64,000 bases of DNA from Marsupella aquatica (GCA_973895155.1 OZ316891.1:12026771-12090770); one strand, 5' to 3'. Counted from the first letter of the stretch, positions 2,691 to 64,000 are shown. Numbers and translations: made by a program. Notes: a model not told the origin generated them from the sequence alone.

Positions 2691-2721
2691 GTAGAGGGGT
2701 CTTATAGGGAAAATCTACAGG

Positions 2722-3483: not shown

Positions 3484-3704
3484 CGGAGAGTTAGGCTTAG
3501 AATAGAACTAGGAGTAGCTAAAACAGGCTGTTAGGACAAGCGCCGACCAGAAGATAGCGGTGCTGACACATTAGCCAGCCTGGGTAGAATAGGTTAGACT
3601 AATAGGACAAGTCGTAACCAGCTTAGCAAGGATATAAGTTAGCGTAGATTCGTGCACGAGGCCAGGCTGGTCCTCAGCCCTTAGTATTTAGCAGCCCCCC
3701 GGTA

Positions 3705-4363
3705 GAGGCACGAGGGGGGATTTTTAGACTCAGAAGTTGACCATTCGCGGTACGCACGGGGAGTCTCGAACTCGGTGAAGTGCCGGAGTGCCAAGGGGAG
3801 GATATACGACTAAGCTCATTGGGCGAGTGCGGAGCCGGGCTCCATTGTAGTGTATACTCCTCGGCCTTGGGCCCATTCATTCATGAGGTGTTGGGTCACC
3901 CAATCGTAAGTGTATGATCAAAGATGAATGAAATCATTTCCCATCAATTCCTTCATGTAAATCAAGATTTCTGCTTATGTATGAATGCATGTATGAGTCT
4001 CGTGTGCAAGTGTCAGTGCTGGGCCAAACACGTCATGCCAAACGTGCACGGGGTGCAGGTTACGGGTACGGGGTTGCGAGCCCGGGTTGAGCACTTGTAC
4101 TAATAGATCCGGATCGAAGGCGGTAACGTGAAGGCTTAGAAGTCCATAAGCAGGGGTCGACCCATGTCAACTAAGGTACGTTCCGGCGGCGGAACACAAA
4201 GCATACCTAAGCGTGCTCGTAAGTAAATGTATGCGCACTTAGCGCTAGTTTGGGAGAATTACACGCACTCCGCACGTCCCTCCCTGCCCAAACCCGAATA
4301 CTAAGAAGGGAAGTGTCCATCTTAGACGTGGATAGGCCTAAGGACTAGGCCGACGGTGTGACA
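3705..4363 (+). mobile_element. Putative polypurine tract and 3' LTR of a Gypsy element
   Basis: GAGGGGGGA at 3712-3720, followed by ~640 bp ending in GGTGTGACA (4363), a typical LTR 3' end. The expected 5' TG is not intact. Confidence 0.4.
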
Positions 4364-4914
4364 ATAACACAAATTTGAGGAGACATTCTTCAAGTGTGAG
4401 CTTATTTCGATGACCCATGCCGTTGTGGACCTCCCCACTATATATATACCTACATGGCCTGCAATTAGAGGTAGTACACACAAACATAGATCTGTATACT
4501 CTAGAATTATTATGAAGTTTGTCAACTCAATCAACCATCCTAGTAAAATTTTCATTGATTGTAAACATCCTTCATACCCATGTTTGAATCTGTATATTAC
4601 ATCATGTCTGATGTCTCCAATTCATAAGAATTGACGAGGCCCAATTGTTGTGGACAATAGAAGCAGACTGATAAATGAGCATGTACTCATTTTCTTCCTC
4701 ATTAAACATGTCATCATTATCACTACAATTATCCACATTACTCTCAATTGATTTATCATTATTTGGTACCTAAAGAGCCATCAATGTTTCTGTCGGCCAT
4801 CATGTCATTGTCAAATTTGATCCAAATTGATTAAATTGAAATTGATGGTCCAATGAAGTTGATTGTTGGTCCAATGGAATTGAGTTTCTATTTTGATACA
4901 ATCTAATTGCAATG

Positions 4915-5885
4915 GAGGTATAATTAATATGCTTAATGGGCCCTCTGGTGTAACTTTCTTACTTGATGGGCCCCTACAAGACATTTTTTTACCTAGTAGG
5001 CCCTCTGCTACACTTTTGCGTCAATTGTTCTTCTAGCATTCACTCTAACCAATTTTTGTTTCATGCATTGACCAACTACATTTTCAAAAAACTATGTGGT
5101 CAAGTATGATTGTAAGGCAAATTGTATCGTCAAACACCCAACCTTGCATGGTCAAACAAAAAGGTCAAACAATGTACTGTAGTTAGGGGAACCGCAGAAT
5201 TGCAATCACAGCTACCCAAATTGCAAAGTGAAGACAATATGGATTATGTCTTTGGATTTGAATTTCAGTGCTCCACACAGGGTTTTGTTGATGTTTTTGA
5301 TTTGGGACTATCAGTTCGAAGGACATGTGCGGTTGCTATGATCCTGGTACTTCCACTAGCATTTTTTTTGTCACTGGCCATTGGACACTTGTTTTCTATC
5401 ACTAGGCACTGGGCTTCAATCAACAACTTGAAGGTATCAACAAAACCTGAGCATTGAGCATCGACAAAATGAGCGCTTCCCTCCTGCTACACAAAGAATC
5501 AAAGAGCGACTATTATTAGGTAGCGGTGACAACCCTAAACTGCTCACAACACACAAATACATAGTGCAATATGTCTTCATGGCTAAACTCGCCCCACCCT
5601 ATTTAGAACCCCGTTGTTGACTGTGTTGTTAGCCACTGGGTTGGGATCATGGTTCCCTATGGCGCGGACGTGATGAACTGGACATAAACACGCTGTGTAC
5701 AACATAGGCCTTATTGTGGTCAGCTACACAATTTGGCACCTCACAAGTATAGTGAGTACGGCTCATTAAGAGGGGGCCTATTAGGTAAAGACAGTTTCCT
5801 AGGGGCCTATAAGGTAAGAATTTTTTTGTAGGGCCCATCAAGTAAGAAAGTTACACTAGAGGGCCCATCAAGCATAGTACATCTC
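4915..5885. mobile_element. Non-autonomous Mutator-like element (MULE) with long TIRs and 10-bp TSD
   Basis: Direct repeat AATTGCAATG at 4905-4914 and 5886-5895. ~90-bp imperfect terminal inverted repeats starting GAG (atgcttaatgggccctctggtgtaactttcttacttgatggg... versus its reverse complement at ~5790-5885). Confidence 0.85.
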
Positions 5886-7289
5886 AATTGCAATGTGTCT
5901 AGCTGTGAGTAAAATTTGTATGTAAATTGAAGAATTTGATCAATAGAAATCAATGTTTCCTGTAATTGTGAATTGTGGAAATTGAAGAATGTTCACCCAT
6001 CAACCATCAGCTTGTTTGTTACAGTAAAATATCCAACAATAACAACAATTATGATAGGATTAATGTAAAGGCAAAACTCTAAAATTGAATTTTGTTTGTG
6101 GGATTGTTGAGAGCTTTGCAACTGAAGATCAGGGCAACATTAATGGTCTGCTGCCAAGAGTGGGACCATGTAGTGGTAGGCTAGAAGCAAGGCAAAGCCC
6201 TCTGCAGTGGATGTCCTTTGAGCTATGGAAGTCCTTTGACCCATGGAGGTGATGCAAGTGCCACAGGGCATAGAGGTCACCTGAGTACTGTGGTCTATGG
6301 AGGTCCTGATCTTATTGCACAATTCGTCTAAGGAGAGCAGCGTTGGATTTTGGGGAAGAGAGGTGAGAAGGAAGAGAGGTGAGAGGGGTTGTGCTCCCCT
6401 AAAAAAGTGGCCCTAAAAGTCATCTTCTAACTCAAGTTGGAGGTTAATCAAAGTACACCTCTTAACTCACCTGCTTATTTACCAAAGGGTTGCTACAAGG
6501 GAGCTTTTGGAAAGTTTAAGGAAACACACTTAAAAAAACCAAATAGAGAATCTGGCCCTGATTTTGGCCCCTTAACATTAAGGATAACTATAATAGAGAA
6601 GGAAGTTGGGCTAGCAGTGAGAGGAGGGCACCAGGGGGGGGGGGGGGGGGGTTACCAGGCCAGTCCATTGGCCAATGTATTTTGGGGATTGTTTGTATTG
6701 TGTGTTTGAAGCATGCCTGGACAAACTTAATAGTGGGGCAGACAAACTTTTTTCCTAGGCAAGAGGCTTGACATGGGTATGGCGTGAGTCTTTCACAACA
6801 TTAGAGTAGTGGGTTCATTGGGATTTACCACATAAGAACACTCTCATGTAGAACAAAAAGGGACCAATAGTTGCATTGGTGATGATTGTTTTTTGCCACG
6901 AAGAATGCCTAAGGATAACAAGTTAGTAGTCACACTGCCTCACTCCCTTTGACAATATGAACGCACTCCACCTTTTGTATGCCTATCTAAATCCATCAAA
7001 TTTATTAAAGGTGATTTACATCCAAATCACCAATATTCTAGAAGATGTTTGCTCTGTTAGCGCATGATTGGAATTGGGTGGAATAATTCTTTGCAAATCT
7101 CAGGAGATCATAGGGTAGTCCATCCATATAGGATACATGGATCTTCTTGAAAATTAGTCACAATTTACAATTATGAGCATGAAGTTTGCTTATAACCACC
7201 ATAAGTATAGTTTGCTCATGCAATGTACCCAAATGAGCAAACTGGGTTTTTGTAGATTGCCGCTTTTTTCGATTAAAAACCACAATGCC

Positions 7290-8070
7290 ACATTCTTTTT
7301 GTCAAAGGTTAGCCACAAGCCATCGAACTGCCTTGAGGTTGTGACAAAGAAAAATCCTATGATTCCATCTCCCTTGTCAGATTCACACACCCCCATGACT
7401 GGTCTCCTAGGGCTAAGCTCCACTCTCCTAGGGTCTTTGTGGTTGTGCTTGTTTTTGGGCTGTCGTGTTTCCTGTGGCCTGACGGTTTTCTCGGATTCAC
7501 CTGGGCCTTGGTCTTTCTTTGTTGAGCATTGATGACATTCACAATGGCAAGCCCATGAACCATCTAACGCACAATAGTTGACACAGAGAGATACGTGGTT
7601 CACCTCCACATGAGGCTACGTCCACGGGAACACACAAGAGCTTTACTGCACTCTAGACCGACCGGCCATACCAAGCATCCACAACACAAGCTCTCTCTAT
7701 CTCTCAACTAGCTCCGTAACAATGAGCCTAAATTTCACCAGGGTCTGACATCAGCCCTGGCTATGTGCACAACAGCATTACCGCTAACATTAGCTAAGTC
7801 CTAACCCGAGTTAGCCTAACTGTAGTTAGTTCATGAGTCACAAGACTAGAGCAATATCTAACATTCTTTTGGTGTTTGTTGGCCTGTTGCCCTGTCCCCT
7901 CTGTTGTGGCTTGTTGGGGGCCGGCACTCTTGCCTGGGGGGGGCTTTCGGGTGCCCTGGTTCTCGACTTGTTTTTCTCGTCCCCCTGGTTCGCCGAGGGG
8001 TCTACTTAAATAAATTTTGTGCCCTGTCACTTCACTTCTCCCCAAAAAAAAGAAAAAATGAAAAAAACAG
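7290..8070 (+). mobile_element. Probable non-LTR retroelement (LINE/SINE) 3' end with A-rich tail, interrupted by a solo LTR
   Basis: T/G/C-rich 3'UTR-like sequence continues across the solo LTR and ends in aataaa...cccc-aaaaaaaagaaaaaatgaaaaaaac (8044-8068). 5' limit is uncertain. Confidence 0.4.
7520..7863 (-). mobile_element. Solo LTR (Copia-like)
   Basis: TGTT...AACA termini, 5-bp TSD TTCTT (7515-7519 and 7864-7868), Copia U5-like motif CCCGTGGACGTAGCC...GAACCACGT on minus, homologous to 27167-27442. Confidence 0.85.
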
Positions 8071-9360
8071 AAGAAGCTCCCCTCTCCTCCACCCTCACGA
8101 TAGGCCCCAACACACTCTACTCCGAGGGTGATGGGAACTACGAGATGCTCCAATGTGGCAATCTCACGGCCCTGGTATCCTTGGTTGTTGACCAAAAAAT
8201 GATATTGAATAACTAATCTGAAAATCAGTGGCAAAGTGGTTATGTTTGACCAAAAAAAGTGCCGATCTAGGAAAATCCAGAACTAGCAAAATGGACCCCG
8301 AGCCAGGCAGTTTCAGGCGAATCAAGTTGATGCTGTTGTGAAGGCGAACACAATGATGTAGTAGACGCTGCTCGACGACGTGGGCAAACGTGGGGACATG
8401 GCAACGACCTGGCATTTCGCACGAGTATGTCCCGCCGAAGGCAGCAGGACGAGATGCGGCAGCACCTCCTTTCCGCATCGATGGATTTAGATGTGGATGA
8501 TGGCCGCCCAGGACTTTTTGCGTCGGCGTTGATGCCCTTTCTTGTCACGGCCGCTTTACTCGTAGTCAGTCCTTTCTTGGTGTGCTGACTGACGATGGTG
8601 TATAATCGTGATTATTCTGGTCGGAGAGGGTGAGATCGATGGAATAGGGAGTGAGGGGGCCGGTTAGTGAGTTAGTGATAAAGTGAGTGAATTTATCCGA
8701 TCCGAACGGCAAAGCGAACTGACGAACCACATTAGTCTCAAGGAGATGTGGATTTGCCGACAGTCTGGCATTGTGAAAGCATCTATCCATCAACACATCG
8801 GAACATTCTTGTGTCTCGGTAGCAATTCGTGCTCTGTGGCCTGTTTTTTTATTACGCACAAGAAAGAGACAAATTGAGAACGGCGGAGTTGAAATCGGAT
8901 AGTAATCTAGACAGAGATCTACTGTAGATCTGTCGAGATCTCGCCTGTAAATGCTCGTGTGGATTTGTTTGTCTCTCACCTTGCCTTCTGTCATCCTGCT
9001 GCCCTCGCTGCGCTTCCTTTCTTAATGTGCAGAAGAAGAAGACGGAGCATCAGCAACACTGTCTCGGGGGGGGGGGGGGGGGTGGGGGGGGTGCACGAGA
9101 GATTTTCACAGCCAATTCAGATTCAAGTAGGTTGTGGCGATCGGTGGCGACTCTACAGTAGATAGGGTGCTGGAGGGGCAGACTATTATTGGGCGATGAC
9201 GTTGTGGGGCCAATGAGGGGTCGATGTATGTAGATTCAAGGGGAAGGAGAGCAGGGAAATTGGAGGGTTTTTGGTTTAGGTCTGTAGCTTTGGCGTGTTG
9301 AGAAGGAGAAAGAGGACGAGAAGGGCAAGGAAGGAGGCGGAAGGCAGGGAAGTTGGTGGG

Positions 9361-12300
9361 ATGGATTTTTACGTTCAGAAAGCCAAGCTCTTCGCGTTTG
9401 AGACGGCCAAGAGGTCGCAGGAGATTGCGACACAAGCTGCGAAGCTATCGCAAGATCTAGCAACAGAGACCGCGAAGAGATCCAAAGAGCTAGCGACGGA
9501 AACGGCCAAGCTATCTAAAGAACTTGCAATTGATGTTACCAAGAAAGCGGATCAGCTCAAGGCATATGCAGGAGATCTGACGCCCACTGTTGCAGCCCCG
9601 AGAGGGCCTGCAGCTCCGCCCCAACCCTCAGAGGAAGAACTTGAAGAATACGGGATTACCCCAGAGCTTCGGGAATTCGTGAAAGGGCTCACCATAAAGA
9701 CATTCAGGGACTTCCCCATTGATGGACCGGACGGTAATTCTCAACCCCTGTCATGTCTCGGTGTCTTTCGAGCGTTCAGACAAATGCTGGTGGTTCCATA
9801 GTTACTACCCTGTTCCAGGATATAGATCATATTGCTGCGGCCACGAGCAACCGCATTTTCCTTGAATAAACACCCAGGATGGTCGTTACGTAGTTATCAC
9901 GCCGTTCGAGTGAGTAGAACAGACTGCTGCAGTAGCAACAGTAACCTCATTCTCCTTGAATGAACGCCCAGCATTTGCCGATGTCGCTTTTCATCCTTCG
10001 TCCCGGGCTTCTTACCTAGTTGTCCGTAGAAAATTGTGAACATCTCACCTAGTTTAGTTTATGATTTGGAAGACCTTCTAGGTTGAGCATGTGGAGCAAG
10101 CAACAAATTAAGATGACGGGTGGTCAACAAGGGCCTGGCCGTCAATCTTAAGATCTCTTTCTGCCAGGGTTTCTCCGCTGATAATGAGGAGACAGCGATT
10201 GGGTTTATGGGAACGGTGAGGAAGACCTTTAGAGGTTTGGAAGAAATTCCCTTTCACGTGACACCTGAGGCGAATTGAATTCTGTGAAGCTCCTAAAAAC
10301 TGTGCCCGATCTGCTATCTTGCTTGTCAACGCACTAAGATGTTAAGGTGATACAAGTTAGGATTGAGATTACTAGCTGGTAGGAGTTTCCCTTGTCCTTG
10401 TCAACGTCCACCAACTAGTGAGTATAGCCTGAAGCCATTGGTGGGGATGAATTGCCCTATGTGAACAGAATCAAATCTCGGGTATGGATGAGTTTTTCAA
10501 CTATCTGATGAGAATAGTCTTTTGCCTTTTGACAGGTGGGTTTCGAACGGAAACTGGGGGTGAGCAAACTGGGTGTCAGACTGGGAAGCAGGATTTGACT
10601 GCATGGCGGGAGAGGCATGCTGTGTTGGTGCTCTCTGCTGTCAAGGTAAGACTTACCTCCTTCCTCGCATACTGTCTTTCTCATCTCACTCTTTGGTGGT
10701 TGACAGCAACTCTCCTCATCCGCTTCTCTTGGACGTTTCAACGCTCGAGTTGTCATTCAAATTCGTTTTTCTTGGATGGTTTAGGGATTTTCTGTTAATC
10801 ATTTCGAGGTGGTAATAAACTTGTTAGTACCTGAGCGGAAATGTTTTTGGATGCTGCTTCTTGCAGGAGATTTCAGACTTCCGCTATGTCTTATGCCCTC
10901 GGCGGATGAATGAGACTCGCTTCTGGAGAATATATTTCACTTTGGTCCAAAACCAAATTTTTGGGTAAGTCTCGCGTAGCTCTTTAACTGATAACCTCGC
11001 CGCGATAAGACTGCTACAGATCAACGCATAGTTATCTATGAAAAATCATGTATGTTATTCATTTAATCAGGCAGTCGTCAGAGTTATATTGGTTCCCTGG
11101 ATCGATTATTGAACAATCGCTGTTGCGAGTTTGATAGGCAGGATTCTGTTTCAAAAACAATTCGAAGAAGTGACGGTGGAAGGATGACCATGGAATGATG
11201 AGGCTATAGACAATGACATCAGTGGGCAGTTGGGTAATAGCCAAGCAGGAGTGAGGGCAGAAGGAAAAGTAATACCTGTTGGCTTGCACAGGATATAGTT
11301 AGGAGGATAGTCGAGATATCCTAGCATATTGAACTGTCAATAGACCGTTCATCTGGTTCGATTTGTGAGAGGTTGTTCTCAGACTCACCAGTGGGATGCT
11401 ATTCCATAGGGTGGGCGTATACTTTCTGGTTAGTACAATTTGGGCCGGTATAAACATAAATGAGGATTCCTTGAAGTAGTGTTGAGATTAGCAAGGATTC
11501 AGCAGTGTATTCATCACCACTTTTTGGCTTGCTCCTTTTGCAGATCAGAGGATCGTGCATTAGAAAAAGAAGTTGCTCTTGCTCGAGAGAGAGAAATAAA
11601 ACTGTTATCTCAACGAGGAGAGACAGACGAGGAGCGTGATAGGGACTTGAGACCACCGCCACCATATCCAGGCGACGAAGGCGTGAAAATCAAAGGTGGA
11701 GGTGATTCTAGTTCCGCTAAGCACGCAGATGACCTGGATGCCTATCTCCTGGGAGCACTGGATAGTAGCGATGAGGGGATTGGTATGTCTTTCTGTGATG
11801 GCCGTTATTATGGCTATTTTTGCGCTTTGTATTTTTTCCAGTGTGTGTGTAGGCAGTGCGAATTGAAGTTACACATAAAGAGTCTCAATTTGGCATGATC
11901 TTGCACGAGATCTTGCACCACTTTCAACTTCACCAGATTTCCTGCTCATGCTATGTAACAATGGTCGCAACGAGTCCTCGTTATTAAACATTTGCTTCCA
12001 GGTCCTGTTTAATTGTCTACAATCTAGCTGAGTCTGTCATTGTAACAGATGGAGACGACGACGACGGTTTTGATGCCGATTTTGATCAACTCGTCAATAG
12101 TGCTGTAAGACTCTTATTTCTACCATGGAGTGGGTGGCATAGTTTTGTAGTCCTTTGAGCCAACGGTTCAATGGCCTTGTTCTTCACAAATACCTTTTAG
12201 TTTGAAAGTAACAATACCCTGCAACACATTGGAATTTTGGCAGGCATGAGAATATTATCGGATGCATAGAAGCAGACAATTGAGTGATAAGTGGAAGTCC

Positions 12301-50200: not shown

Positions 50201-52155
50201 TGAATCCTGGTGACAATAATGAAATCCTTACAGGCAGCAGAGAACATCATTCACGAGGATGGGTTACAACAAAGGAGGCACAGAAGAAGAAAGGAAACTA
50301 AGCATCAGGCTTGTGAGACTATATATATGGGGGGTCTCACTAAGTATGTGGAGGCCCCCATCACCTGCAATATCTCGCAGTCTAGAACACCCTGACATGT
50401 AAGAAAGAGATCTACCATTTTCACGCTTGCATGGTTACCTTTTTCAAATATTTCTGAAATTTGTTTTACAGAATCATATCTGTTGTTTAAATGCTCGAAA
50501 ATGCTCAAATTTTGTTTAAAACACATAAATATTCTTCCACAAAAAGTATTAAGTTTTTTCCTAACCAATAATTAAGATAATTATGGGAACATGGTCCACG
50601 GAGGCTTCGAATTCAGTCCTCAGATTATTAACGAATCTCAAACCTTGAAGCTTGCGGAGAAAAACTTAGACCCAAAAGTATCAGTTTGGTCTTTGGTCAA
50701 GAGTGTGCGGAAATGTTGTTTTGTGACCGCCATTTGTTGTTAATGAATTTGCCTTTGACTGCCACCGGACGTAGAAAGAAGAGATTTGAGACATACTACT
50801 ATTGTAATAGTCACGCGACGGGATGTACTAGAAAGACGAGGTTTGAGACGTACTATTATAATAGTCACACTCGCGCCTGAATTAAATAGTTTTCACTCGG
50901 CCTGTGTACTGAATTTTTCATAATTTGTCACTAGGCAGGTTTCGGACTTTCGGCAAAGCAAAATACTCCGTATATAAAAGTAGTGGTCACCGTCTACTGC
51001 AGGTTGGCCGGTGCGAGAAACCGCCCTCTAGGCTCTCGCGCGAATGAACGGTTTTCCCTCCCACCGGCCTGTCCGCCTCAGTACAGGGCACTGTCCTCGA
51101 TGTCCTCTCGCCGTTGATCTGGGCTACGTGTCTACGACAGTGCGAGCCTGGGGACTACCAGTGTACCACGCTTCCCCAGGCTGCGGCAGCGAAAATCGTT
51201 CATAGATGTCTGAACTCTCAAGGATTTTTCGGAAGCGTTGAAGACCAATCCTGTGAACGACCACTGTCGCCATTATTTTCGTGTCTGAACTCTGAAGGGC
51301 ACAGTCACCATAAGTGGACGTGCGGTGCTTCCTCCCGGGCAGTTCTTCTAAGGGACGAGAAAAAAATTCGCAGGGGAGTTAAAGACATTTGGGAGAGAAA
51401 ACTTCAGTCAGAAAAGGAGATTCAACGAAGAGGAATTTTTGCGTCCTCGAGATCTTCTCAGATTGGTTGCATGACGGATTCTAAGCTTAACTTGCTGCCG
51501 CTGCCGGTGCTGCCGGTGTTCCATGGAGGCGGAGAAAAATTTAGGCACACTGTCTGAGATACTCGCTGCATGCTACAGTATATAATAAAAACGCAGACAT
51601 TCTTGCTCCAGCAGTCATCAAGTCGAGAGTATCCATACTCCGTAAGTTTCAGTGAGCTTCCTGCTCTGCAGACTACAGGAGTTGGCTGGGACATCTACAT
51701 CCCTTGTTGCTCGTGTTCAGGTGGGTTCTACCAATCTCCAGAGCAGCACTCCTTTGAATTGTACTTAATTATTTTCTCACATTACGTTCGGTGATAGTAT
51801 TGGGACAAACACTGACTGGTAGTGTAGTGAAGGGTCGGACGAAACTCTGTTGACATGATAGCCTGGTCTGGGCTGCGTAGTTGTCTTTCATGCATGAGAA
51901 GCTTTTCGCAGTTGCATGGTCTCATGGCATCTGAGTATTCCATACACAGCCTAGCCCGGGCCAGCATTGTCTTTTGTCTCACAAATAATTCCCATTACAC
52001 AGGAATATCCAAGCTACAGAGAAACAAGTGCAATTTACTTACATTTTTGGAGCTCAAGTAAACAGTAGAAGATGTGACAAGCAATTTTTTCTGCTTGTCG
52101 TGTTGCGGTCCTCCAGATGGTCTCTGACCGGTGACTTTGTTCAGTTATTCTGCGA

Positions 52156-54013
52156 ATGATGGCAGTCCTCCAAGGGCCGGCGGCAACGCAGTCTCTGCTG
52201 GGCGTTTTGGTGCTCTTTTGGTCCAGTAGGGCAGTTCTGGTAAATGCTGTCGCTGCTTGGGCGGTGACAGATTGGGCGGATGCTCATGCGACTTTCTATG
52301 GTGGACAAGATGCTTCTGGGACAATGGGTATGCAGTGAACTTTCACTATTCCCCTCCCAACCCACTTTCTGTACGCGTTGCTGGAGCAAATGCTCTGAAT
52401 CTCGTCGTCGATGCCGTTTCTGATCTCTTTACCAAACTTTTTTGGAGCAATTAAAATGTAGCTGGGAGTTAGCTGACTCTACTGATGATCCTGTTCCCCG
52501 TGCTGTAATTTATACGTTGCAGGTGGTGCATGTGGATATGGGAACCTCTACAACGTAGGCTACGGAGTCAACACAGCTGCATTGAGTAATGCTCTGTTTC
52601 ACAACGGGTTGAGCTGTGGAGCCTGCTTCCAGCTTGAATGCAACCTTGACCAGACTCGATGGTGCTACCCTGGAGGGAAAACCATTACGATCACGGCAAC
52701 TAACCAATGTCCTCAGGGTTCAGAGGGGGGGTGGTGCGACTGGCCCAAATATCACTTTGATTTGGCATTCCCCATGTTCGCGACACTTGCCCAACCAGTT
52801 GGTGGCGTAATTCCGGTCAGATACAAAAGGTGAGCTCATCCCAGGCCCACCGCAATGAACTGAATTGACTTCCAGCACTTTGTATCGCCGGTCTCTCGTT
52901 TCCCTTCCATGTTGAAACAGACAGAAATCCGATTGAGCGATTGTATCTGACTCATGCTCTGCTGCTATCCTTCAACTTCTTGGCTCCGCTTTGAAAATAA
53001 AATTTCCTCTATGTCACGGCCGTTCTGGTTTCGTTCGTTGGTTGGGAACTTAAAATGTATGGATGGAAATCTTTGTCGTTCTTTCGCCGAACATGGTATT
53101 CCTCTCCATCCGCCATTTATCCTCGTGGACCTTCGACTGCTTTTAGTGGATTTCCAGAAAGTGAAGAATCTATTTACGCATCTGGGAATTGGGTGGGGCC
53201 GTTTATTGTAAACGAGAATAACGTAGCAATGGCAAATATTTCTTGCCGTGAAATGACAGGATAGAGCCCGCCTGAGCCCGTGCTAAAATGAATACATCAC
53301 CTTTGGTAGCAGAGTACTTTGGTCCCAATTCAGTTCTCTCCGATTTGCTGATTCACACGGGATTCCACGTGCCCCATGTTACTCGGGTTAGAGCATAAGT
53401 AGGGAAGATCATCTTAAGGGCTACAGCTTGAAATTTACCTCCAGAGGAAGCAGAGAACTATAAGAACTATGTAAACCTTGACACAGAAAGCTGACCGACA
53501 AAACTAAATCTGTGATATCCAATTGCGTCAGTCATAAGTCCGACTATATTCATGGACCTACTCCGAAGCGCCACCTCTAAAGTATTAGGACCAAGAAAGT
53601 GGGGTACCTGATTAAATTCTTGGCTCAGATGTTTTTGAGCTGGGGTGGATTGTCATTAGGCTTCTTATTCTGACTGGGCAATCGGTTAATTTTCATGTCG
53701 CAGAGTTTCATGCTCGAGACAGGGAGGAGTGCGCTTCAGGATTCTAGGCAATCCATGGTTCAATTACGTCATGGTGTTCAATGTAGCAGGGGGTGGAGAC
53801 ATTTCGGCCCTCGCCATCAGAGGAGATAACACTGACTGGATTTCAATGTCCCAAAACTGGGGTCAGTTCTGGTCTGCCGGTGCCTACGTTGCTGGTCAGA
53901 GCCTGTCATTCAGAGCATCATTGGGCAGTGGACAAACTCTGGAATTTTGGAATGTCGCTGAAAAGAACTGGTGGTTCGGGCAAACTTTCGAGTCGGATTA
54001 CAACTTCAGTTGA
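52156..54013 (+). CDS. EXPA: Alpha-expansin (EXPA); exons 52156-52327, 52523-52829, 53704-54013
   Basis: [90 protein letters not shown]; canonical two-intron layout. Confidence 0.97.
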
Positions 54014-55610
54014 TATTGATTGACGCCTCCTCGCCAGCCAAAAGGCCGTTGACCGGACCATTACTGATAGCTAGCGATTGAATATTATACTTTCAACAAA
54101 TTTTTGTATGTTGGGTCTGTCAATTAAGCTGGCGGACGGTGATAAAATCACTTGTAGTAGTTACGAATTGCTTACTTCCCAGTTGCCAACCTTGTACATA
54201 TCAACACTTCCGTATAGCTGCATTTATATATTGAGCTTCCTGGGTCACTGACTTTCACATACGGTACAAGGGGATTCGTTAGTGGCAATCCCGGGGAAAC
54301 AGGTCACAGCCTCCCTCCATTTCTTTGTAGATGTAAGTCTCCATGCTTTTGTGGAAGTGGTGATCATAAATGTCTGGAACTGCACCCGCCACAACTGGCC
54401 TGGTTTCAGCCCTCACTTTGAAAGTACTGACAACACAGAAAATGGCATTTTCAGCCTAAATCAAGTTCTACAACAGGATTTAAAGCTCCCTCTTTACCAC
54501 ATGTTCAATGACATATATATAATAAAGAGATTGAGAGCATCAATGTATGGTTTTGCATGGTGTTAGCCGTGGCCTATCCTTAGTGTTTATCTCCAAACCT
54601 TTGATCGTGCCATAATATGACCTAGGACTTGTCGCTGCATGCTCGAAAGTAATCGGCGGAATAATACGCTGTCCTATATGGTCTAAGATGCTGAATTGCC
54701 ACTATTCCGAGCGTTCTACACAATTTCATACAAATTGACTAACCACGTACGCTCCATTGTTGACTAATAGAATCGAACGTAACACTAAATTTCTTTCGTC
54801 CGAAATGTCTTGATTGCATCTTCGCTCGGTGGACTAGCTTACATAGAAAACTTCACAAGTGTTTGGGGTAGGATCGGGTGCACTTGGAGCACAGGGAGAG
54901 ATGTCTGGTAGATTTGGACCCACAAAAATAGTACATACATTTAAAGCTTGAAATCTATTTATCGACTTGCAGACCAGTGAGATGTACCTGGTATGGTCAT
55001 CGGATTTCTGAACCACAAGTTCGGTGTACCATTTGCATGGTTATCAGAGTTTTGAGCTTGAAGTGCAGCGAGATTCGTTTGGCCTAGTACAGTAGCTGGC
55101 AATTGTAGCAATTTTGTAGGTTTCTTACTTCTTCAGGAACATGGTATGATTATCGGATGAAAATTTTGGGGTGAAAGATTATGGGCACCACTCGTAGGCG
55201 CATCTGGATAACTAGTACGAAGTAAGCAAAATTGGAGAGTGAGACTATACACAGCACCCGCAGGGCAGGGGAACTACATGGCGCAAATTTGTAACAAGAA
55301 ATTCTGTACACCTTGCATCGTAGTGATATGATGCATATAGCATGCTCATTTGGATGCAAATTTGGAACATTCAGACGCTCATAGTCCAGAGGTTGAAGAG
55401 AAAGTTGATCCTTGGGCCTAATATCCTGAAGCTTTACTTTTGTGTCAATTAATACAAGGGGGCCTTGAGAGGTCCAACAAGTAATGGTTCTTGGAATTTT
55501 GGCACACCTAAGTAGATTAGGAATAGAATTGGTAACAGCATATGAGTGGCACTAATTAGTTCGTATTATGGGTTTTTAATCTCCTTTGTAACTTATGGTT
55601 ACTTTAGGAT

Positions 55611-55765
55611 ACATATCTCAGCTGTTGGTTTAGGGTCACTAAGCTAGTCCTTTGATTCTCTCTCTTCCAGGCTCCTCTGATTACTACACACATCTCACAT
55701 CTCAGCTGTTGGTTTTAGGTCACTATGCTAGCCTGTTGATTCTCTCGTCCAGGGCCCCTCTGATA
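55611..55765. repeat. ~82-bp tandem duplication
   Basis: ATCTCAGCTGTTGGTTT..GGTCACTA.GCTAG....TTGATTCTCTC.TCCAGG..CCTCTGAT x2. Confidence 0.85.
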
Positions 55766-55790
55766 TATATATTGGTATCAGCCTATTCAT

Positions 55791-56142
55791 TAAAAGTGTA
55801 TTATTATTTTATTTATGTACATTTGGGCAGTGAAAAGTGTACTTTTGGGTTTGGAAAAGTGTACATTTGGCCAATGAAAAGTGTATATTTGGGGATAGAA
55901 AAGTTTACAATTGGCCTAAAGAGTGTACATTTGGGCAATGAAAAGTGTAAATTTGAACATCAAAATAGATACATTTGGCTTTAAAAGTGTACATTTGAGT
56001 ACATTTGGCCTAGAAAGTGTACATTTGAGTGCAAAATGCATATATTTGGCTTAACAAGTGTACATTTAAGTGCATTTGGTCTAGAAAGTGTAACTTTTAG
56101 TGCAATAAAGTGTACATTTGGCCTAAAAAGTGTACATTTGCC
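55791..56142. repeat. Subterminal ~22-bp tandem repeats with TGTACA core
   Basis: AAAAGTGTACATTTGG variants repeated more than 10 times. Confidence 0.9.
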
Positions 56143-56391
56143 TACCAACTCTTATTATAATCATTTAAAAGAAAGGAATGAATAGAAAAACATTTTTAAT
56201 TATGTAGAAAAAGCAAACATTCATATTTATAATGATCAAAAGTTTAGAAAATGAGGAGATAGTATCACATTAAAACTATTAGAATAGTAAATAACTAGTA
56301 CATAAATTACTATGTTTGAATGAGTGACTATCTTAGTTACATAAAAACTAGTAACTATCTATTTAATTATTATAGCTTCTAACAACTAAGT

Positions 56392-58284
56392 CTACTTGTC
56401 CATCCTTTGAAGATAATTTTGGACAGTTTGTAGAACATTTCGAGGGATCTTCAAACCTCTGCCCGCCATGTTTTCTTCTTTCATTCCAGATTTAAAACCA
56501 TACATTGCAGAATTCGCATACTGCCAATGTTGAGTATTCTCACCAAACCCTGGATCTCGTTCCCATGTCTTAGTGGACATGAAACAATTTAGATACCGCG
56601 CACTCTCAGTCACATCAAGTTTACTAGAGTGTTTAGGCCTCCACCATTCAACTGGGAACATTGGAGCGTACTGTCGAGGCAGAGAAGGGTTTGTTGAAGA
56701 TGTAGTTGGGACTTCATGCTTTGGGTCCACCAAACCCAAAGCTCTCACCAACCAGAAATGACCTCCACCATTTTTATTCTCCCAGTCATCCTCGGGTCGA
56801 AGAAATACAAAGTTTCCTTCACAAATATCTTGTAAAGGAATCCATCGTCCTTGTTCTCTCTCAGCTCGAGATCCAACAAATGGTGCTGCTTGATCTTCCA
56901 TCTCTTCCAAGACCTCATTTTGAAGAGCCGTCATCTCTGCATTCTCCTCATCTTCACTTGGAGGACCACTTTGTTCCGGTTGGTTGACCTTGTAACCAGT
57001 GCCGTGGTTAGTCTTAGGCCAAAATCTGTTTTCCAAGGGAAATTGAGTACTTCCCTCCCCTTCTAGTGCGAGCCCATTTGTCAACAACTCCACAATTCTC
57101 TCCCAATATTTCACAAGAGGAAATCTTTCCTTATATGCTATAGATGTCTCATCAGTGCAACTCCTTCTCAAAAAATCAAGGTACTTGTTAAGAAATGGGA
57201 TAATCTCTTCAGATTTTTTGTGTATCTCTCCAATGGATTTAGCTAAGGGCTCTCCACTTGGTAAAAGAAGAGAATTTGTTGTCAGATCTGTTGCCCAAAT
57301 GCACCTTCCACCAACTGGAGCCCAAGCTTGCTTTACATGGGACTTATACTGAAATATTGGTACATTATCTCTCATAGAGAAAAGAAATGATACAGGTTTT
57401 GAGTGACCTTGAATATCTTTCACCTTGAAAGTTTGAAGATATTCTTTGTAAGATGCAACTTCTTGTATCAATCTGGGAACTGGATGAATGCTCTCGCATT
57501 CCCATACCTCTGCCATAAGAGCAAGGAGGGTTGCAACTTCTTTGTGCTGAACTTGATATGATACCTTTGAAAAGAGTGCATCAACATCTTCATGCGTATG
57601 ACCAACCATTAGAAAAGACATTTGAACAGTTTCAAATACTCCTCTACTCACAAGCTCGCTACAAAATGCCATGACAGTCTGGTTTTTGTTGTCCTTTGCT
57701 GAATTATCCATCTGCAATGTTAGGTGCCTTGGCAAGGGCTTGAACGATGGACTGCATTGCTCTCCTTGCATGTCTTCTCCATCATCCTCATCTTGCTGGT
57801 TTGGGACGGTCTCAGTCCGACTCTCAGCTCCATCTTCAGAACCAATATACCTATTCACCGGTATATTCTTTGGTTCCAAATAACCCGTCAAAAATGCTTC
57901 AAAGTCAAGCAGGGCTTGAAAGAAAGGTCTGTGAGGTTCCCAATGAAGGCCATCCAACATGTCACCTGTCTTGTCTCCATTGTACTCTTCAAGGTCTCGA
58001 AGACACTTAGCCAAGGATGTCACCGTGAAATCGGCATCTTCTGGCCAAAGGCCAGTGACACTACAGTGTGCATAAACTCCTGGATCCCTCCCGTGGGTCA
58101 ACATCCCTGTGAGAGCAATAGGTAGCGGCATTCCATGACCCGAAAGAGATTTAGGAGTACTAACCATTTTTGGAATCCATGTCTTTGCTTGATCCATCTT
58201 GTCATGAATAATGCAAAGATATTCTCCTGGGTGTTGTTTGGCAATCACTCGATGAGCGTAGTAAACATATCTACTTGATTCCTC
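56392..58284 (-). CDS. DUF7869-type DDE/D transposase catalytic region (no ATG start; N-terminus probably lost or frameshifted)
   Basis: QEESSRYVYYAHR..AKQHPGEYLCIIHDKMDQAKTWIP, LTGMLTHG, LTLQMDNSAKDNKNQ, GVFETVQMSFLMVGHTHEDVDALFS. Confidence 0.8.
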   Translation of the reverse strand, partial: EESSRYVYYAHRVIAKQHPGEYLCIIHDKMDQAKTWIPKMVSTPKSLSGHGMPLPIALTGMLTHGRDPGVYAHCSVTGLWPEDADFTVTSLAKCLRDLEEYNGDKTGDMLDGLHWEPHRPFFQALLDFEAFLTGYLEPKNIPVNRYIGSEDGAESRTETVPNQQDEDDGEDMQGEQCSPSFKPLPRHLTLQMDNSAKDNKNQTVMAFCSELVSRGVFETVQMSFLMVGHTHEDVDALFSKVSYQVQHKEVATLLALMAEVWECESIHPVPRLIQEVASYKEYLQTFKVKDIQGHSKPVSFLFSMRDNVPIFQYKSHVKQAWAPVGGRCIWATDLTTNSLLLPSGEPLAKSIGEIHKKSEEIIPFLNKYLDFLRRSCTDETSIAYKERFPLVKYWERIVELLTNGLALEGEGSTQFPLENRFWPKTNHGTGYKVNQPEQSGPPSEDEENAEMTALQNEVLEEMEDQAAPFVGSRAEREQGRWIPLQDICEGNFVFLRPEDDWENKNGGGHFWLVRALGLVDPKHEVPTTSSTNPSLPRQYAPMFPVEWWRPKHSSKLDVTESARYLNCFMSTKTWERDPGFGENTQHWQYANSAMYGFKSGMKEENMAGRGLKIPRNVLQTVQNYLQRMDK

Positions 58285-59399
58285 TTGTTAAAATTGTAGG
58301 GCCTTGAACGCAGTACTCCTCTATCACTTACATCCGCATTGAGTTCATCCCTATCCATTGAGTCCATCCTTTCAGAACCTTCCACCAAAATGTCTGACAA
58401 AAATTTTCCATTTGCAACTAGTTTTGTTGAATCAATCCGCCATCGAATCAAACTCACTACTCCCTTGTGGATGTTGGGAAAGTATTGTGCTGCCACGACA
58501 TCTTTCACAGCAATCCCAACATGGTCATCACCAAGAATTTCATCATCAACTGCCGCCGTCACTTGAGGGACAGTGATCGTTCCCGTGGCAACCATTTTGG
58601 TTCGATCCAAACCAGTGTAGAGTTCAACCAACTCTGACATCCAGTTTGCCCGATGAAAATAGTCACACTTAGTGTCTGTGGTGTTTGCCGAACAAGACTG
58701 TGAAACAAAATCCACCTTGTCCTTTTGCTTCTTAGAGGAAGATTTGTTGCTCCCATCGATGTCAACATTCCATACTTTATTGTGGACGTCAGCCACATCC
58801 CATAGAACCCAGGAGCCCTTTGCCTCTTCAATTGTTGCAGCTCCACCATGTGCGTAAGGTAAAGTCTTACTACCATGAATCACATCTGTGATTTTTACAC
58901 TAACCCGAGACTCACCGAGTAATATGTTATGACATCTCTCCATTGGATCAGTCTTGAAAACAACTCCAAAGGCCACACAATGGCCAGAGATAAACATTTC
59001 AACCTCATCACCTGGCCTTAGGGTGGTCGAAGCATCCTCCTGTACATTTGCAGAATTATGGATGTTGTTATCTTTTCGAGTCGAACAACTACCAATACTG
59101 ATGCGTTTTTGAGTAATCTTATCCGCAGATCGATATGCACATGACATATCCCAAATGACACATGAGTCAATGGCATCATGAAGATTTTCCGCCCTAGGCA
59201 TTGGAAAAGGGAGCTTCCTGGTCTCACCAAAGGCCTTCTCAATGAGAACCCCAATTCGATTCTCTCCCAGCACAATATTTTGAAGACTCTCTTGCGGATC
59301 TGTCTTTTGAACTGTCCCATTTCCAACGTCGTAACCATCCATTGTCAAGGTCACATCATCGCCCCTAGAAAACCTTTGAGACATCCTTTTCCTATTATC
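58245..59399 (-). CDS. Exon/ORF with three tandem Tnp1/En-Spm-like (Transposase_23/DUF8039-like) domains
   Basis: Three copies of V(A/G)xGxV...(DP)...ILG(E/D)xxVxVxI...(LP)...W(D/R). Splice acceptor tttttttcagtgtgcag at ~59400. Confidence 0.7.
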   Translation of the reverse strand, partial: DNRKRMSQRFSRGDDVTLTMDGYDVGNGTVQKTDPQESLQNIVLGENRIGVLIEKAFGETRKLPFPMPRAENLHDAIDSCVIWDMSCAYRSADKITQKRISIGSCSTRKDNNIHNSANVQEDASTTLRPGDEVEMFISGHCVAFGVVFKTDPMERCHNILLGESRVSVKITDVIHGSKTLPYAHGGAATIEEAKGSWVLWDVADVHNKVWNVDIDGSNKSSSKKQKDKVDFVSQSCSANTTDTKCDYFHRANWMSELVELYTGLDRTKMVATGTITVPQVTAAVDDEILGDDHVGIAVKDVVAAQYFPNIHKGVVSLIRWRIDSTKLVANGKFLSDILVEGSERMDSMDRDELNADVSDRGVLRSRPYNFNKRNQVDMFTTLIE

Positions 59400-59454
59400 C
59401 TGCACACTGAAAAAAATGGATTAAAAGCAAAGTCATGCAAATTTTGATTCAGAC

Positions 59455-60400
59455 TGCGATCCTCAAAGTCTGGATTTGGACTACGATCCTTCAATTCCGG
59501 ATTTGGACCGGGACCATCCAAGTCCGGATTTGGACTACGATCCTCTGATTCTGGATTTGGACTAGGACCATCCGAGTCCGGATTTTGACCGGGACCATCC
59601 AAGTGCGGATTTGGACTGCAATCCTCCGAGTCTAGATTTGGACTACGATCCTCCGATTATGGATTTGGACTGGGATCATCCGAGTCTGGATTTGGACTGG
59701 AATCCTTCGAGTCTGGATTTGGAGTACGATCCTCCGATTCTGGATTTGGACTGGGACCATCCGAGTCTGGATTTGGACTGGGACCATCCCAGTCCAAAGT
59801 TGGACTAGGACCATCCCAATCCAAACTTGGACTCGGACCATCCCAATCCAAACTAGGACTTGGACCATCCAAGTCCAAACTTGGACTCGGACCATCCCAA
59901 TCCAAAGTTGGACTCGCACTATCCTAATCCAAACTTGGACTCGGACCATCCCAATCCAAACTAGGACTTGGACCATCCAAGTCCAAACTTGGACTCGGAC
60001 CATCCCAATCCAAAGTTGGACTCGGACCATCCCAATCCAAAGTTGGACTCGCACCATCCTAATCCAAACTTGGACTCGGACCATCCCAATCCAAACTAGA
60101 ACTTGGACCATCCAAGTCCAAACTTGGACTCGGACCATCCCAATCCAAAGTTGGACTTGAACCATCCTAATCCAAACTTGGACTCGGACCATCCCAATCC
60201 AAACTAGGACTTGGACCATCCAAGTCCAAACTTGGACTCGGACCATCCCAATCCAAACTAGGACTTGGACCATCCAAGTTTAAACTTGGACTCGGACCAT
60301 CCCAATCCAAAGTTGGACTCGGATGATCCCAATCCAAAGTTGGACTCGGATGATCCTAGTCCACATCCGAATCCAAACTTGGACTAGGACCATCCTAGAC
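59455..60400. repeat. 27-bp palindromic minisatellite, ~35 units, two subtypes
   Basis: GGATTTGGACTGGGACCATCCGAGTCT subtype to ~59790, then CCAAA(C/G)TTGGACTCGGACCATCCCAAT subtype. Confidence 0.95.
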
Positions 60401-60966
60401 CAACCCATAATGTAACGGGAGATAAACTTCAAACATTTTAAGCTAAGAAAATTCCAAATTTAGGAAGACTCCGTATTTTACGGATCTCCCTATATGGTGT
60501 AGCCTAAAGTTTGCGTGGTCTTAAGGTAGACCCTAATGTCTACATACAGTTTCATGAAATAATGAAACCTAGCCTTATATTTGAATGCATTAACCTTATA
60601 CTCACCTTAGTATTAAGATCTGGTAGAATATGAATATCACATCCAAGGGGGATACATTGTTGTCTGTAGATTGGTAAAAACTTTCCCAGAACCCTGAATA
60701 CAAGCTATATGCCACTAAATCTTGGGAGTAAAAAACAAACTGAACCCTAAACCACACATGTCTGTAAAAGATAAACTGAGAGGACCCCAAAAGTCAAGAA
60801 GCTGGCTAAGCTGACCCATTGAAGGTAAGTGGCTCAATACATAACACTTTAAGAGAAACTCCGGATTACATGGAGCTTAGATTTGGGAAACTAGAACAAG
60901 AATGAGCTCCGAAGTGGGCGTCTCCCGAAATATACCCTTTGCTCGAGTCGGCTCAAACGGAAATCG

Positions 60967-61025
60967 CGTGAAGATAAGGGTTGAGTACCCCTTCAACTTA
61001 GCTTGCGGCACACCTTATCTTCACG
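60967..61025. other. Perfect 13-bp inverted repeat enclosing a smaller hairpin
   Basis: CGTGAAGATAAGG (60967-60979) and CCTTATCTTCACG (61013-61025); inner GTTGA...TCAAC. Confidence 0.8.
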
Positions 61026-61433
61026 AGCTTAATTGTGCGGGGACTACCGTGCAAGGCTGTTAGGTAGGCAGGACATCAAGGAAGGAGGCCCGTATGTAGG
61101 GTGCGGGCAACGGGTCGTACGCAGGAGCAGGCCGTACGCACTATCAGGCCGTACGTAGGAGAAGGAGGCAACCGGCCGTACGCAGGCCGGGGTGAGGCAG
61201 GAGGGGGTAAAGGGACGGAGAGGTCCAGCCAGGACCTCATTCTCATTCTCACTCTTTCGCTCCTCACTCTGCTCACGCTCTCCACTCTCCGCCTCCGCTC
61301 TCTGCTCTTTGCCTCCACTCGCTCGCTCTCCTCGCTCTTTGCTCTCCGCTCTCTCTCTGCCTCCCCGCCTCCGCCTGCTTCCGCCTCCACCTCCATTCTT
61401 TTTCATTGCCCTAAATCGGACGCCTGCTAAGAA

Positions 61434-61458
61434 GCCACGTGTCACTCTGCCACGTGTC
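61434..61458. promoter_or_regulatory. Two G-box/ABRE-like motifs
   Basis: GCCACGTGTC at 61434-61443 and 61449-61458. Confidence 0.4.
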
Positions 61459-61464
61459 AGAAAG

Positions 61465-63749
61465 ATGGAAGCGAATCGCGTCCTTGTGAAGTCCTCCGTG
61501 GAAGCAACAGAGGAGTTTGACCTCTCCTCTATGAGCGACAGTGTAGAACTGGCACTTGAAGACTCCAGACAATTTCAATCAAGAATCCCTAGTAAGTATC
61601 CATCACCTATCCTCCCTAAGTCTTAGAGGACTGGGACCATCCGAGTCCAAAGTTGGACTCGGATGATCCCAATCCAAACTTGGACTCGGACCATCCCAAT
61701 CCGAACTTGGACTCAGATGATCCTAATCCAAACATGGACTCGGATGATCCCAATCCAAAGTTGGACTCGGATGATCCCAGTCCAAAGTTGGACTCGGATG
61801 ATCCCAATCCAAAGTTGGACTCGGACCATCCCAATCCGAACTTGGACTCAGATGATCCTAATTCAAACGTGGACTCGGATGATCCCAATCCAAACTTGGA
61901 CTCGGATGATCCTAATCCATCCAGGAGATTGAATCTCGATTGTAGGAGCAAGTCTAAAACCATCTCAAGTTGGACTAGGACCATCCTAATCCAACAAGAG
62001 TTATTCAAATGTTTTAAACTTAATAAGTCTAACATGGATGACGTTTTTATGATGCAGGGAGCGATCTTGTTGGTTTCAAACCCGCGATTGCACCGACCGA
62101 CTGCCGGGATGGATTCTTACTAGATGAGAGATCCCCAGGCTTCCGATGGGGGCTTGAGTTCTCAAGAACCCCGCTTAATAATGAAGTGCCATCAAGCACG
62201 ATTGAACCTGTTTTGACCTTAAAGTGCAGAGCAAATGATAGCCTGACTTTGGTTTGCGGACCTGTGGTCTCTGTTGGCATTGGAGGGACAGGGATGAATT
62301 TGGTCATTCTGGAGATGCACGATAGGTCATGCTGGGTTATAAGTTAACCTTATGTCAAAGGCATACTCCTCAGAATTCAATGTCGAATGGCACGCAAGTG
62401 GTGAATTGAGCGTTTTGTCAATGGGATTTTTTCCAAAGACATATGACACAAAGAAGTTGGTCATCGGGGTAACTGGTATGCTTCCAGTCGACATTATGTA
62501 TGGGTTTCAATATTTGAAACTCAACATGATGAAGCACCAAGGCAATTTCTCTTTTGCAACTACTTGGACGTTAAGCAATTTACTTGAGAAAGTTGGATTG
62601 TTATCATTGGAGTCAGAGGAGCCTGGTGTTTTAATTGATAAGGATGTTGCATTTGATCCCAACTTTGATTTAGTCAAAGCAAAGCAATGGATAGAATCTT
62701 TGTCAAAGACGAGAAACCTTCCAACGGTGAATACAAACCCTGTGCCCGAGAAGGCGCCAGAGAAAGCTCCAGAACCTACAACAGAGACCGCGGGAACTAC
62801 AGCAGCAACCTCTCAAAGAGCAGTGGGAAAACAAAAACAAAGCCAAAGGAAACCTCCGGTTGAAAAGAGACTTCCAGTTGAGAAGCCGGTTGAGAAGCCG
62901 AGTACGAGAAGCCGAGTTCAGAAGCCAGTTGAGAAGCCGAGTACGAGAAGCCAAGTTGAGAAGCCAGTTGAGAAGAAACGTCCGGTTGAGAAGCCAAGTG
63001 CAAGTGAAAAGAGGCCAAGACAAAAGAAGAAACAGAAAATTGACAGTGCCATCATGGATGACACTACAGAAAACCTGACAGTGCATTCACAAGATATGGA
63101 CGAGCAGTTGGACGCTCCTGAGGAGAAGAAGGTCTTAGAAGGTAATGAGGGACTGCAACAAATGGAGCAATATTATACGTTTGGGATCAATTCGATATTT
63201 TCTATTCCCGTAGAGAGTATTTTCCCTGCGTCGGCAAGACTCTGTTACAGAATGTTGAATGCAAACCATGTAAAGGAGGTGGCCAATTCCATGATAAGAA
63301 ATCCGGGGCATGAACCACACATAGCAGACTTGATTCCTTACACTACAAAACATAGAAACCTAATGCAATATGACAACACGGAATCAGATAGGAGGGACTT
63401 TGTAGCAGCCGTGAAAAAGGGGGAGGTTCAATTCCTTGCCATTAGCGGTCAACATTCGGCCAGAGCAGCCAGATGGATTCGAGAATGGGCAAACAAGGAT
63501 GCCAAGCTAACAGCATTGGCAAAAAAGCTGGAATTTCGAAAGTCAAGAATATTATCTCATCGAACACCATCGTCAATATTAGTTGAGCATTCAATGCGAT
63601 CTAATGCTATCAATAGCACGATGGTGTTTCAGTCATGCTTCAAAGATACAGTCGTTCATGCTAGGCGGCAATTTGTGGAATGTGGAAAATCTAGCCGGCC
63701 AAAACATGGGGACAACAAAACAAACGCTCAAGACAATCAAAAATTTCAG
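61465..63749 (+). CDS. ParB/sulfiredoxin-like domain protein (TE cargo); predicted exons 61465-61591 and 62058-63749, one frameshift near 62341, probably continues beyond the window
   Basis: Phase-1 splice A|GTAAGT...GCAG|GG gives an open frame to TAA at 62345. The +1 frame is open 62352-63770 with PVEKP repeats, an NLS-like KRPRQKKKQK, and FSIPVESI..YRMLNANHVKEVANSM..P..FLAISGQHSARAA. Donor CAG|GTACGA at 63749. Confidence 0.6.
61627..61995. repeat. Second 27-bp palindromic array (~11 units plus an outlier)
   Basis: TTGGACTCGGA(TGA/CCA)TCCCAATCCAAA(C/G) repeated. Confidence 0.95.
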
Positions 63750-63848
63750 GTACGAAGTGTTACTGCTTGATTGGTACAATACCGTAGACTCTCCATGTGT
63801 GATTACAATTGAGATGGTAGTCTTTGACCACAAAGCTTCAAGTTTGCT

Positions 63849-63957
63849 TTGGATTGAGATGGTCCGAGTCCAAATGGATACATTCACATTCAGTAGAATA
63901 TTTCCACTGATATCGTCTAGTTTTGTGTTGGACTGGGATGGTCCCAGTCCAAATGGA
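63849..63957. repeat. Two isolated copies of the 27-bp palindrome
   Basis: TTGGATTGAGATGGTCCGAGTCCAA (~63849) and perfect TTGGACTGGGA-TGG-TCCCAGTCCAA (63928-63952). Confidence 0.85.
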
Positions 63958-64000
63958 TTCATGCACATTCAATAGACTATTTCCACTGATATTGTCTAGT

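Follow-up and report, generated by a model that had tools for sequence, protein, structure and literature searches.

A decayed, probably Sola1-type transposon of the liverwort Marsupella aquatica with a ParB-like accessory gene and palindromic arrays

Results

The right-hand part of a 64,000-nucleotide stretch of Marsupella aquatica DNA (GCA_973895155.1 OZ316891.1:12026771-12090770; the whole stretch is called the window below) belongs to a single multicopy DNA transposon, recognizable by a jump in read depth and by copies with differing flanks. It carries two divergent genes, a DUF7869 transposase and, on the opposite strand, a predicted spliced accessory gene with a ParB/Srx-like domain, together with 22-bp repeats near its left end, two arrays of a 27-bp imperfect palindrome and a GC-rich centre (Table 1). 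A preliminary description, made by a model from the sequence alone, had proposed most of this arrangement, and its claims of subterminal TGTACA repeats, a DDE-type open reading frame, two 27-bp arrays and a divergent gene with a ParB/Srx-like core all stood up to the analysis; others changed, as we describe below. The closest named relatives of both genes come from the liverworts Calypogeia fissa (66% identity for the transposase, 60-62% for the accessory domain) and Riccia sorocarpa.

We placed read contigs from four of seven sequencing runs on positions 52000-64000. In run X2 the flank has a depth of 18-22, and its sequence closes in a contig ending at 55803, whereas single contigs reach 363 at the left end, 455 over the transposase N-terminus, 364 in intron 1 and 383 over the ParB-like exon. 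The repeat part thus lies at approximately 16-25 times the flank depth and is joined to many different flanks, implying dispersed multicopy insertions, a feature of Sola1. A diverged central contig has a depth of 49 in X2, and run X3 has 621 at the centre. The summed depth, which is not a copy number, climbs in X2 from 18-25 to more than 5000 across 55770-55789. Other copies begin to match at 55776/55777 and their flanks are mixed (agreement about 0.5), so we set the left end at approximately 55777 and not, as first described, at 55770. Another set of contigs, likewise with mixed flanks, matches 55783-55848 at roughly 85% and may come from the element's opposite end or from a sister family. 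The four runs showed no empty insertion site. Repeat depth persists to 64000, and the element continues past the window's right edge. That both genes lie in one element, as had been proposed, is supported indirectly by the matching depth across contigs, and also by the shared palindromic motif and the sharp left end. The copy in the window is decayed: its transposase has suffered a deletion, and the ParB-like gene is frameshifted near 62343.

Table 1. Features of the element in the window (positions counted from its first letter)
Feature	Position	Strand	Details
Left terminus	55777..55800	+	±1 base; other copies start matching at 55776/55777
Subterminal array, 22-bp same-direction repeats around TGTACA	55811..56144	+	10 copies of a 16-mer with at most 2 mismatches
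Transposase, catalytic C-terminal part (DUF7869, Sola1-like)	56392..58287	-	PF25273, E 1.3e-43
Deletion scar	58269..58278		about 250 codons of the central Cys-rich region gone in the window copy
Transposase, N-terminal part, three Tnp1-like modules	58278..59408	-	391-codon open reading frame; E 4e-31 to the P0159 N-terminus
Array 1, 27-bp imperfect palindrome	59452..60403		28 units, upstream of the transposase frame
Weak hairpin	60962..61030		18-nt arms; z -2.2
GC-rich centre	61041..61464		61% GC; short CGTACG repeats, two GCCACGTGTCA copies
Accessory exon 1	61465..61591	+	ATG, GTAAGT donor
Predicted intron 1	61592..62057	+	GT..AG ends, matching phase; holds array 2
Array 2, same 27-mer	61626..61994		12 units, inside predicted intron 1 of the accessory gene
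Accessory exon 2	62058..63749	+	N-terminal domain, Lys-rich linker, ParB/Srx-fold domain at 63147-63749
Start of next predicted intron	63750..64000	+	two 79-bp repeats, each with an inverted 27-mer

The catalytic part of the transposase contains the motifs HDKMDQ, DNSAKDNKN and GHTHEDVD, and its best match is the C. fissa protein. GHTHED is unchanged in 15 of 15 transposases, and the three acidic motifs are conserved. The frame with three Tnp1-like modules had been described as an open reading frame of its own, a reading that we rejected. On the alignment, the two frames are one transposase split by a deletion, because the 1101-residue relative P0159 aligns across both (tblastn places its residues 11-256 and 510-1098 side by side, in two frames) and other copies leave the window sequence at the junction. 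These copies have loose ends at 58278 in X2 and X3, and one X2 contig has 237 additional bases before 58269. Similar N-terminal modules are present in P0159, P0168, P0170, P0225 and P0231 and recur in related loci. In the window, the modules have no Pfam match above the cut-off, Tnp1 included, and no usable match in the Atlas search; the Tnp1 label derives from a subthreshold PF03017 match in one relative (E 0.023) and from precomputed PF26133 annotations on 6 of 120 relatives, the best of 182 matches.

We take DUF7869 to be the Sola1 domain, and a literature search found nothing under the name DUF7869. The accessible parts of earlier papers report Sola elements from moss (PMC10741241) and a 4-bp target site duplication with AWWT preference for Sola1 (PMC10741241, PMC3845634). 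Compared by eye, the left end and the terminal inverted repeat (TIR) given there for an insect Sola1 (PMC3845634) share TATT..AAAGTG at a similar distance. From the sequence, it is quite likely that the transposon belongs to Sola1.

The accessory gene reads in the opposite direction. Its first exon aligns with the N-terminal end of C. fissa P0274 (none of 500 shuffles did as well) but with none of five other relatives tested; relatives predicted from single frames stop where exon 2 stops. A profile search gathered 146 relatives of the ParB-like protein. A model of the domain, built from 75 sequences, has a predicted local distance difference test (pLDDT) score of 94.6. When it was compared with the PDB by Foldseek, a check suggested in the preliminary description, the named top rows were Noc, PadC, ParB and sulfiredoxin, and ParB-like phage proteins came out on top in BFVD (best E 3e-4). 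In VIA, ParB/Srx-family chains take the top 8 of 17 rows, with Z from 7.6 to 4.8 and the next unrelated chain at 3.0; the best Z of 7.6 goes with root-mean-square deviations of 3.3 over 99 for PadC and 2.9 over 93 for KorB. A second model, made from a Riccia relative, points to the same family. Although a Z below 8 would by itself be weak, the fold call stands because three structural match lists agree, and we consider a ParB/Srx fold highly probable on these models. In Pfam and PDB profile searches for ParB, the one match better than chance was DndB, in 2 of 15 members (E 0.03). No long close relatives of the ParB-like part were found, which is weak evidence.

ParB needs the arginine of its GxxR motif for binding cytidine triphosphate (CTP). 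The window reads SGQHS at this site, and of 74 relatives that have the motif, 68 carry Ser at the arginine position, 5 carry Leu and 1 carries Glu; none carries Arg. This bears on whether the element could encode a true ParB/parS-like segregation or sliding-clamp system for its excised DNA, segregation having been among the roles first suggested. A ParB/Srx fold and clustered palindromes are what such a system would have. Yet none of these 74 relatives keeps the CTP-site arginine, the visible part of the element has no ParA-like gene, and the 27-mer presumably does not resemble parS. We therefore regard segregation as extremely improbable.

Long Riccia relatives of the accessory protein continue into a region resembling beta-class N4/N6-methyltransferases, an observation absent from the preliminary description. 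PF01555 is matched below threshold in 3 of 54 relatives scanned (P0068, P0085, P0118) and in P0293 (E 6e-4), a motif I-like DFFSG/DLFSG/DIFSG occurs in five proteins, and the region aligns weakly to M.RsrI (E 0.18). Motif IV reads VFLDL, VIADL or VFADL, without PPY, implying a degenerate catalytic motif. For comparison, Marchantia DN4MT1 has TSPPY, and the available part of its description mentions no transposon. The closest relatives end before the methyltransferase-like region. Such a tail in the element studied here would be encoded beyond the window; we think it likely. With the CTP arginine gone and PPY missing from the Riccia relatives, binding is probably of more importance to this protein than catalysis.

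The element has two types of repeat: asymmetric at its end and palindromic inside. All 16-mer copies of the subterminal array lie on one strand and none occurs elsewhere in the window, and exact TGTACA is found 8 times within 55816-56136 versus 19 times in the rest of the window. The 22-bp repeats are likely to be transposase sites. Counting as a unit anything within 7 mismatches of a 25-nt core, we found 43 units of the 27-mer in the element: 28 in array 1, 12 in array 2, two inverted ones at 63849 and 63928, and a degenerate one at 57796, which may be due to chance. The same 27-mer therefore recurs in both gene units and after the ParB-like exon, as had been claimed, and there are no units in the 55.8 kb to the left of the element. 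Of 12 position pairs, nine show self-complementarity in 70% or more of the units. The units of both arrays keep to noncoding parts: array 1 lies upstream of the transposase frame and array 2 within predicted intron 1, and the next predicted accessory intron has the inverted units. An acceptor-like site on the minus strand at about 59401-59418, beside array 1, suggests that this array likely lies in a 5' intron of the transposase. Units occur in homogenized runs, with higher-order periods of 54 and 81 bp. In arrays 1 and 2 the palindrome is broken mostly at core positions 8, 18 and 20, including potential CG and CHG cytosines; these breaks may stem from methylated cytosines that decayed, the changes then spreading as the arrays homogenized. 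We rejected CpG content as a sign of protection, the observed/expected ratio being 0.58-0.62 in the arrays versus 0.69 in the flank.

Between the two genes, the preliminary description had placed a GC-rich region with a hairpin. The GC-richness is real, but the fold is not significant: the centre folds no better than shuffles (z -0.18), and only the stretch at 60962-61030 forms a hairpin, a weak one that was equalled by 5 of 200 shuffles and was chosen after the repeat had been seen. From its position, the centre is likely to be a two-way promoter and 5' untranslated region. Two copies of GCCACGTGTCA, at 61434-61459, directly precede the accessory ATG; we take this motif to resemble the plant G-box/abscisic acid response element, hinting at light or stress control of the accessory gene.

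Do the two genes travel together? From 30 proteins looked up, picked by length or by likeness to Riccia sequences, we obtained 21 Riccia ParB-like models and compared them with 94 Riccia DUF7869 locus tags, drawn from the same best 120 of 182 matches. Three of the 21 lie within 2 locus tags of a DUF7869 model and 5 within 6. Under a local-shift null these counts have P values of 0.005 (null mean 0.37) and 0.002, respectively; under a stricter null, based on transposase-to-transposase spacing, they are 0.058 and 0.029. One further Riccia model, P0108, fuses the transposase to the ParB-like protein. Co-occurrence, the check that had been proposed for a common element, thus has modest support in Riccia and none in the Calypogeia and metagenome sets considered in the Discussion.

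These data also allow us to weigh the idea that the arrays are intronic minisatellites to which nothing binds, that they arose when a chance hairpin expanded by slippage, and that nesting brought the two genes together. The homogenized runs with their 54- and 81-bp periods would be expected from it, introns tolerate expansion, and the Riccia linkage is modest, 18 of 21 models being without a listed transposase within 2 tags. On the other hand, the same core appears in three separate places, in three periods or contexts and in both orientations; related elements have unrelated palindromes at the same position, with at most one copy per family in the 55.8-kb flank; and depth matches across both genes. 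Together these points make a minisatellite origin very improbable.

Some further observations concern the left end and its surroundings. The summed X3 depth at the left end (55777-56400) is several times that of the centre, which suggests many short nonautonomous derivatives, and contigs that skip parts of 56164-56399 are present. A single-copy expansin gene lies at 52489-54013, 1.8 kb from the element end; its intron holds a short repeat at 53345-53399.

Discussion

Our best explanation is that the window contains a decayed Sola1-type transposon whose ParB-fold accessory protein binds the element's own 27-mer arrays and so keeps the element active against silencing; we give this a probability of about 0.5. 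In this model, one cut-and-paste transposon would express two divergent genes from a shared central promoter. The transposase would bind the one-directional 22-bp end repeats, and a dimer of the accessory protein would bind the two-fold symmetric 27-mers flanking the promoter, a division of labour for which we judge the odds to be even. By occupying or marking the array sites, the accessory protein would then protect the element from host silencing. That protection works in this way, rather than by CTP-driven sliding or segregation, is a more tentative proposal, to which we give somewhat less than an even chance.

The accessory protein might instead bind the arrays in a structural role, bridging sites to pair both ends for transposition. 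ParB-family proteins do bridge DNA, and the catalytic motifs look degenerate, both of which would fit. A comparable bridging model for Spm TnpA is set out in the accessible part of PMC13547354. The arrays of the liverwort element, though, are central, around the promoter and at least 3.7 kb from the known end, and we regard a bridging role as improbable.

Several results weigh against protection by an array-bound accessory protein. No contig spans both genes, and one central X2 contig is only 49 deep. Foldseek against the PDB gave weak E values, 1.1e-3 at best, and VIA gave no Z above 7.6. Any helix-turn-helix of the ParB kind would lie in the next exon; helices do follow the ParB-like domain in relatives, where the model is poor and has no specific structural match. 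The methyltransferase-bearing relatives are only 23-29% identical to the window's domain, and the model of Riccia P0085 is poor over the methyltransferase part (pLDDT 56) and matched no methyltransferase structure. By their CpG ratios the arrays do not stand out as unmethylated. None of the 6 Calypogeia ParB-like accessions adjoins any of the seven transposase accessions, which come from one cluster. Finally, we inspected the best 80 of 440 metagenome loci with related transposases, mostly about 30% identical and many of them decayed: a ParB-family gene was found in 0 of 80, of which only 24 had at least 7 kb upstream, and palindrome clusters (at least three copies) were found in 20 of the 80 loci (16 of 68 once near-identical ones were merged), each family having its own sequence. 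One of these, L005, has approximately 11 kb between inverted ends, with an array and a divergent NIF-phosphatase-like gene and no detectable ParB gene. In such loci, either the ParB gene has been lost or is too diverged to see, or the transposase reads the palindromes.

The last possibility deserves attention. The arrays could be the transposase's own sites, which its Tnp1-like modules or its Cys-rich region would read in order to pair the ends or for self-activation; the ParB-like gene would then be an exchangeable passenger that has another target. The transposase is a serious rival binder because 16 of 68 related loci have family-specific palindrome clusters without a detectable ParB gene. 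In L005, L011, L073 and L078, moreover, the same palindrome flanks the transposase frame on either side; the adjacent slot holds other passengers, a NIF-like one in L005 and a methylase-SET one in L043; and transposases can activate cognate copies, according to the available text of a preprint (10.64898/2026.08.24.746577). Against this, the element in the window carries a distinct repeat at its end, one that suits a transposase, and its arrays lie inside the ParB-like gene's own predicted introns. Most of the loci in question are short or decayed, so their ParB gene may be off-contig, deleted or too diverged for a liverwort-based profile. Red-algal arrays, as far as the accessible text of that report goes, adjoin PAG3 in non-Sola elements (10.1101/2025.02.11.637652). 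On balance we consider the transposase possible but doubtful as the binder of the arrays.

The metagenome loci and Riccia models contain other neighbours of these genes. In L005, L006 and L008, a NIF/FCP1 phosphatase-like gene (4297-5241, minus strand, with a second piece near 3362-3657) is divergent from the DUF7869 transposase and sits beyond a palindrome array of 12-13 copies; bryophyte Sola elements may have a third accessory gene in it. In two Riccia models, P0293 and P0123, the ParB-like protein is fused with a NIF part. L043 has a methylase-SET frame directly upstream of a DUF7869 transposase (2360-5743 and 6743-9463), with matches to N6/N4 methylase (E 1.5e-7) and SET (E 2.8e-4), DLPF at motif IV and short palindromes between the genes; the frame resembles Plavaka PAG2 but lies next to a Sola-type enzyme. 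Its protein has no profile similarity to the window's accessory family. Clusters with related GGTGGCCACC-like cores, differing between families, occur in L005, L021, L026, L028, L030, L041, L054 and L062, as expected if binder and site evolve together. A metagenome scan with the ParB-like alignment gave 15 pattern matches, none confirmed, and among viral contigs 76 pattern matches came with no transposase relative.

A bolder form of our explanation would see in the accessory protein a ParB-methyltransferase of bacterial origin that has lost both its CTP arginine and its methyl-transfer motif and become a pure reader of family-specific palindrome arrays. Land plants would then have a second anti-silencing system of the VANC type, evolved independently, that coevolves with its sites and is swappable for NIF phosphatase or methylase-SET passengers. 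We find this conceivable but unlikely.

If array-bound protection by the accessory protein is the correct explanation, plant transposons would have a further independent route to counter silencing. This multicopy liverwort version brings the idea of a ParB accessory into land plants with ordinary CG/CHG silencing, and it places DUF7869 in a concrete context. With the 25-nt palindromic core as a sharply delimited candidate site and with two candidate binders, binding and methylome experiments would make an easy direct test. Apparently this is the first land-plant case of such a transposon design: our literature search found none, and Repbase or closed supplements may already describe one in moss or liverwort Sola1 elements.

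The design as such has algal precedents, so the system is not undescribed, as first thought; the algal-type kind to which the liverwort element would belong, with its putative function, has been described recently. In the accessible text on Sola1-1_Ec32 of Ectocarpus (PMC12477816), a second gene on the opposite strand encodes a ParB-like domain in fusion with an N4C/N6A methyltransferase; this protein has been suggested to bind the element that encodes it and to modify it. The best match of Sola1-1_Ec32 is the Physcomitrella Sola1 transposase. Sola1-1_Ec32 and the liverwort element are both large DNA transposons with an opposite-strand ParB-like gene. Compared by description only, Sola1-1_Ec32 is a brown-algal element of 21.5 kb with termini AACCG..CGGTT and a 282-bp TIR, its internal arrays going unmentioned in that text, whereas the liverwort element belongs to a land plant and has Tnp1-like transposase modules, arrays in predicted introns and a methyltransferase part that is inferred. 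Bostrychia PAG3, in the available part of its description (10.1101/2025.02.11.637652), is likewise a transposon-borne ParB-like protein next to tandem inverted-repeat arrays, which the authors compare with parS and VANDAL; it differs in its EnSpm/Plavaka transposase and in the fusion of ParB to a 2OG oxygenase, the methylase residing in a separate SET fusion, PAG2.

With bacterial ParB, Noc, KorB and PadC and with sulfiredoxin, the accessory domain has its core fold in common; it differs from them in its low identity (8-22%), large insertions (TMq about 0.35) and Ser in place of the GxxR arginine, and no ParA was seen. VANDAL with VANC (PMC5735166) and Spm with TnpA (10.64898/2026.08.24.746577), as described in the accessible parts of these sources, resemble the liverwort element in combining an element-encoded factor with family-specific, clustered noncoding motifs. 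VANC and TnpA belong to other superfamilies and folds, and for them binding and demethylation have been shown experimentally (PMC5735166, 10.64898/2026.08.24.746577), whereas the liverwort element is known from its sequence.

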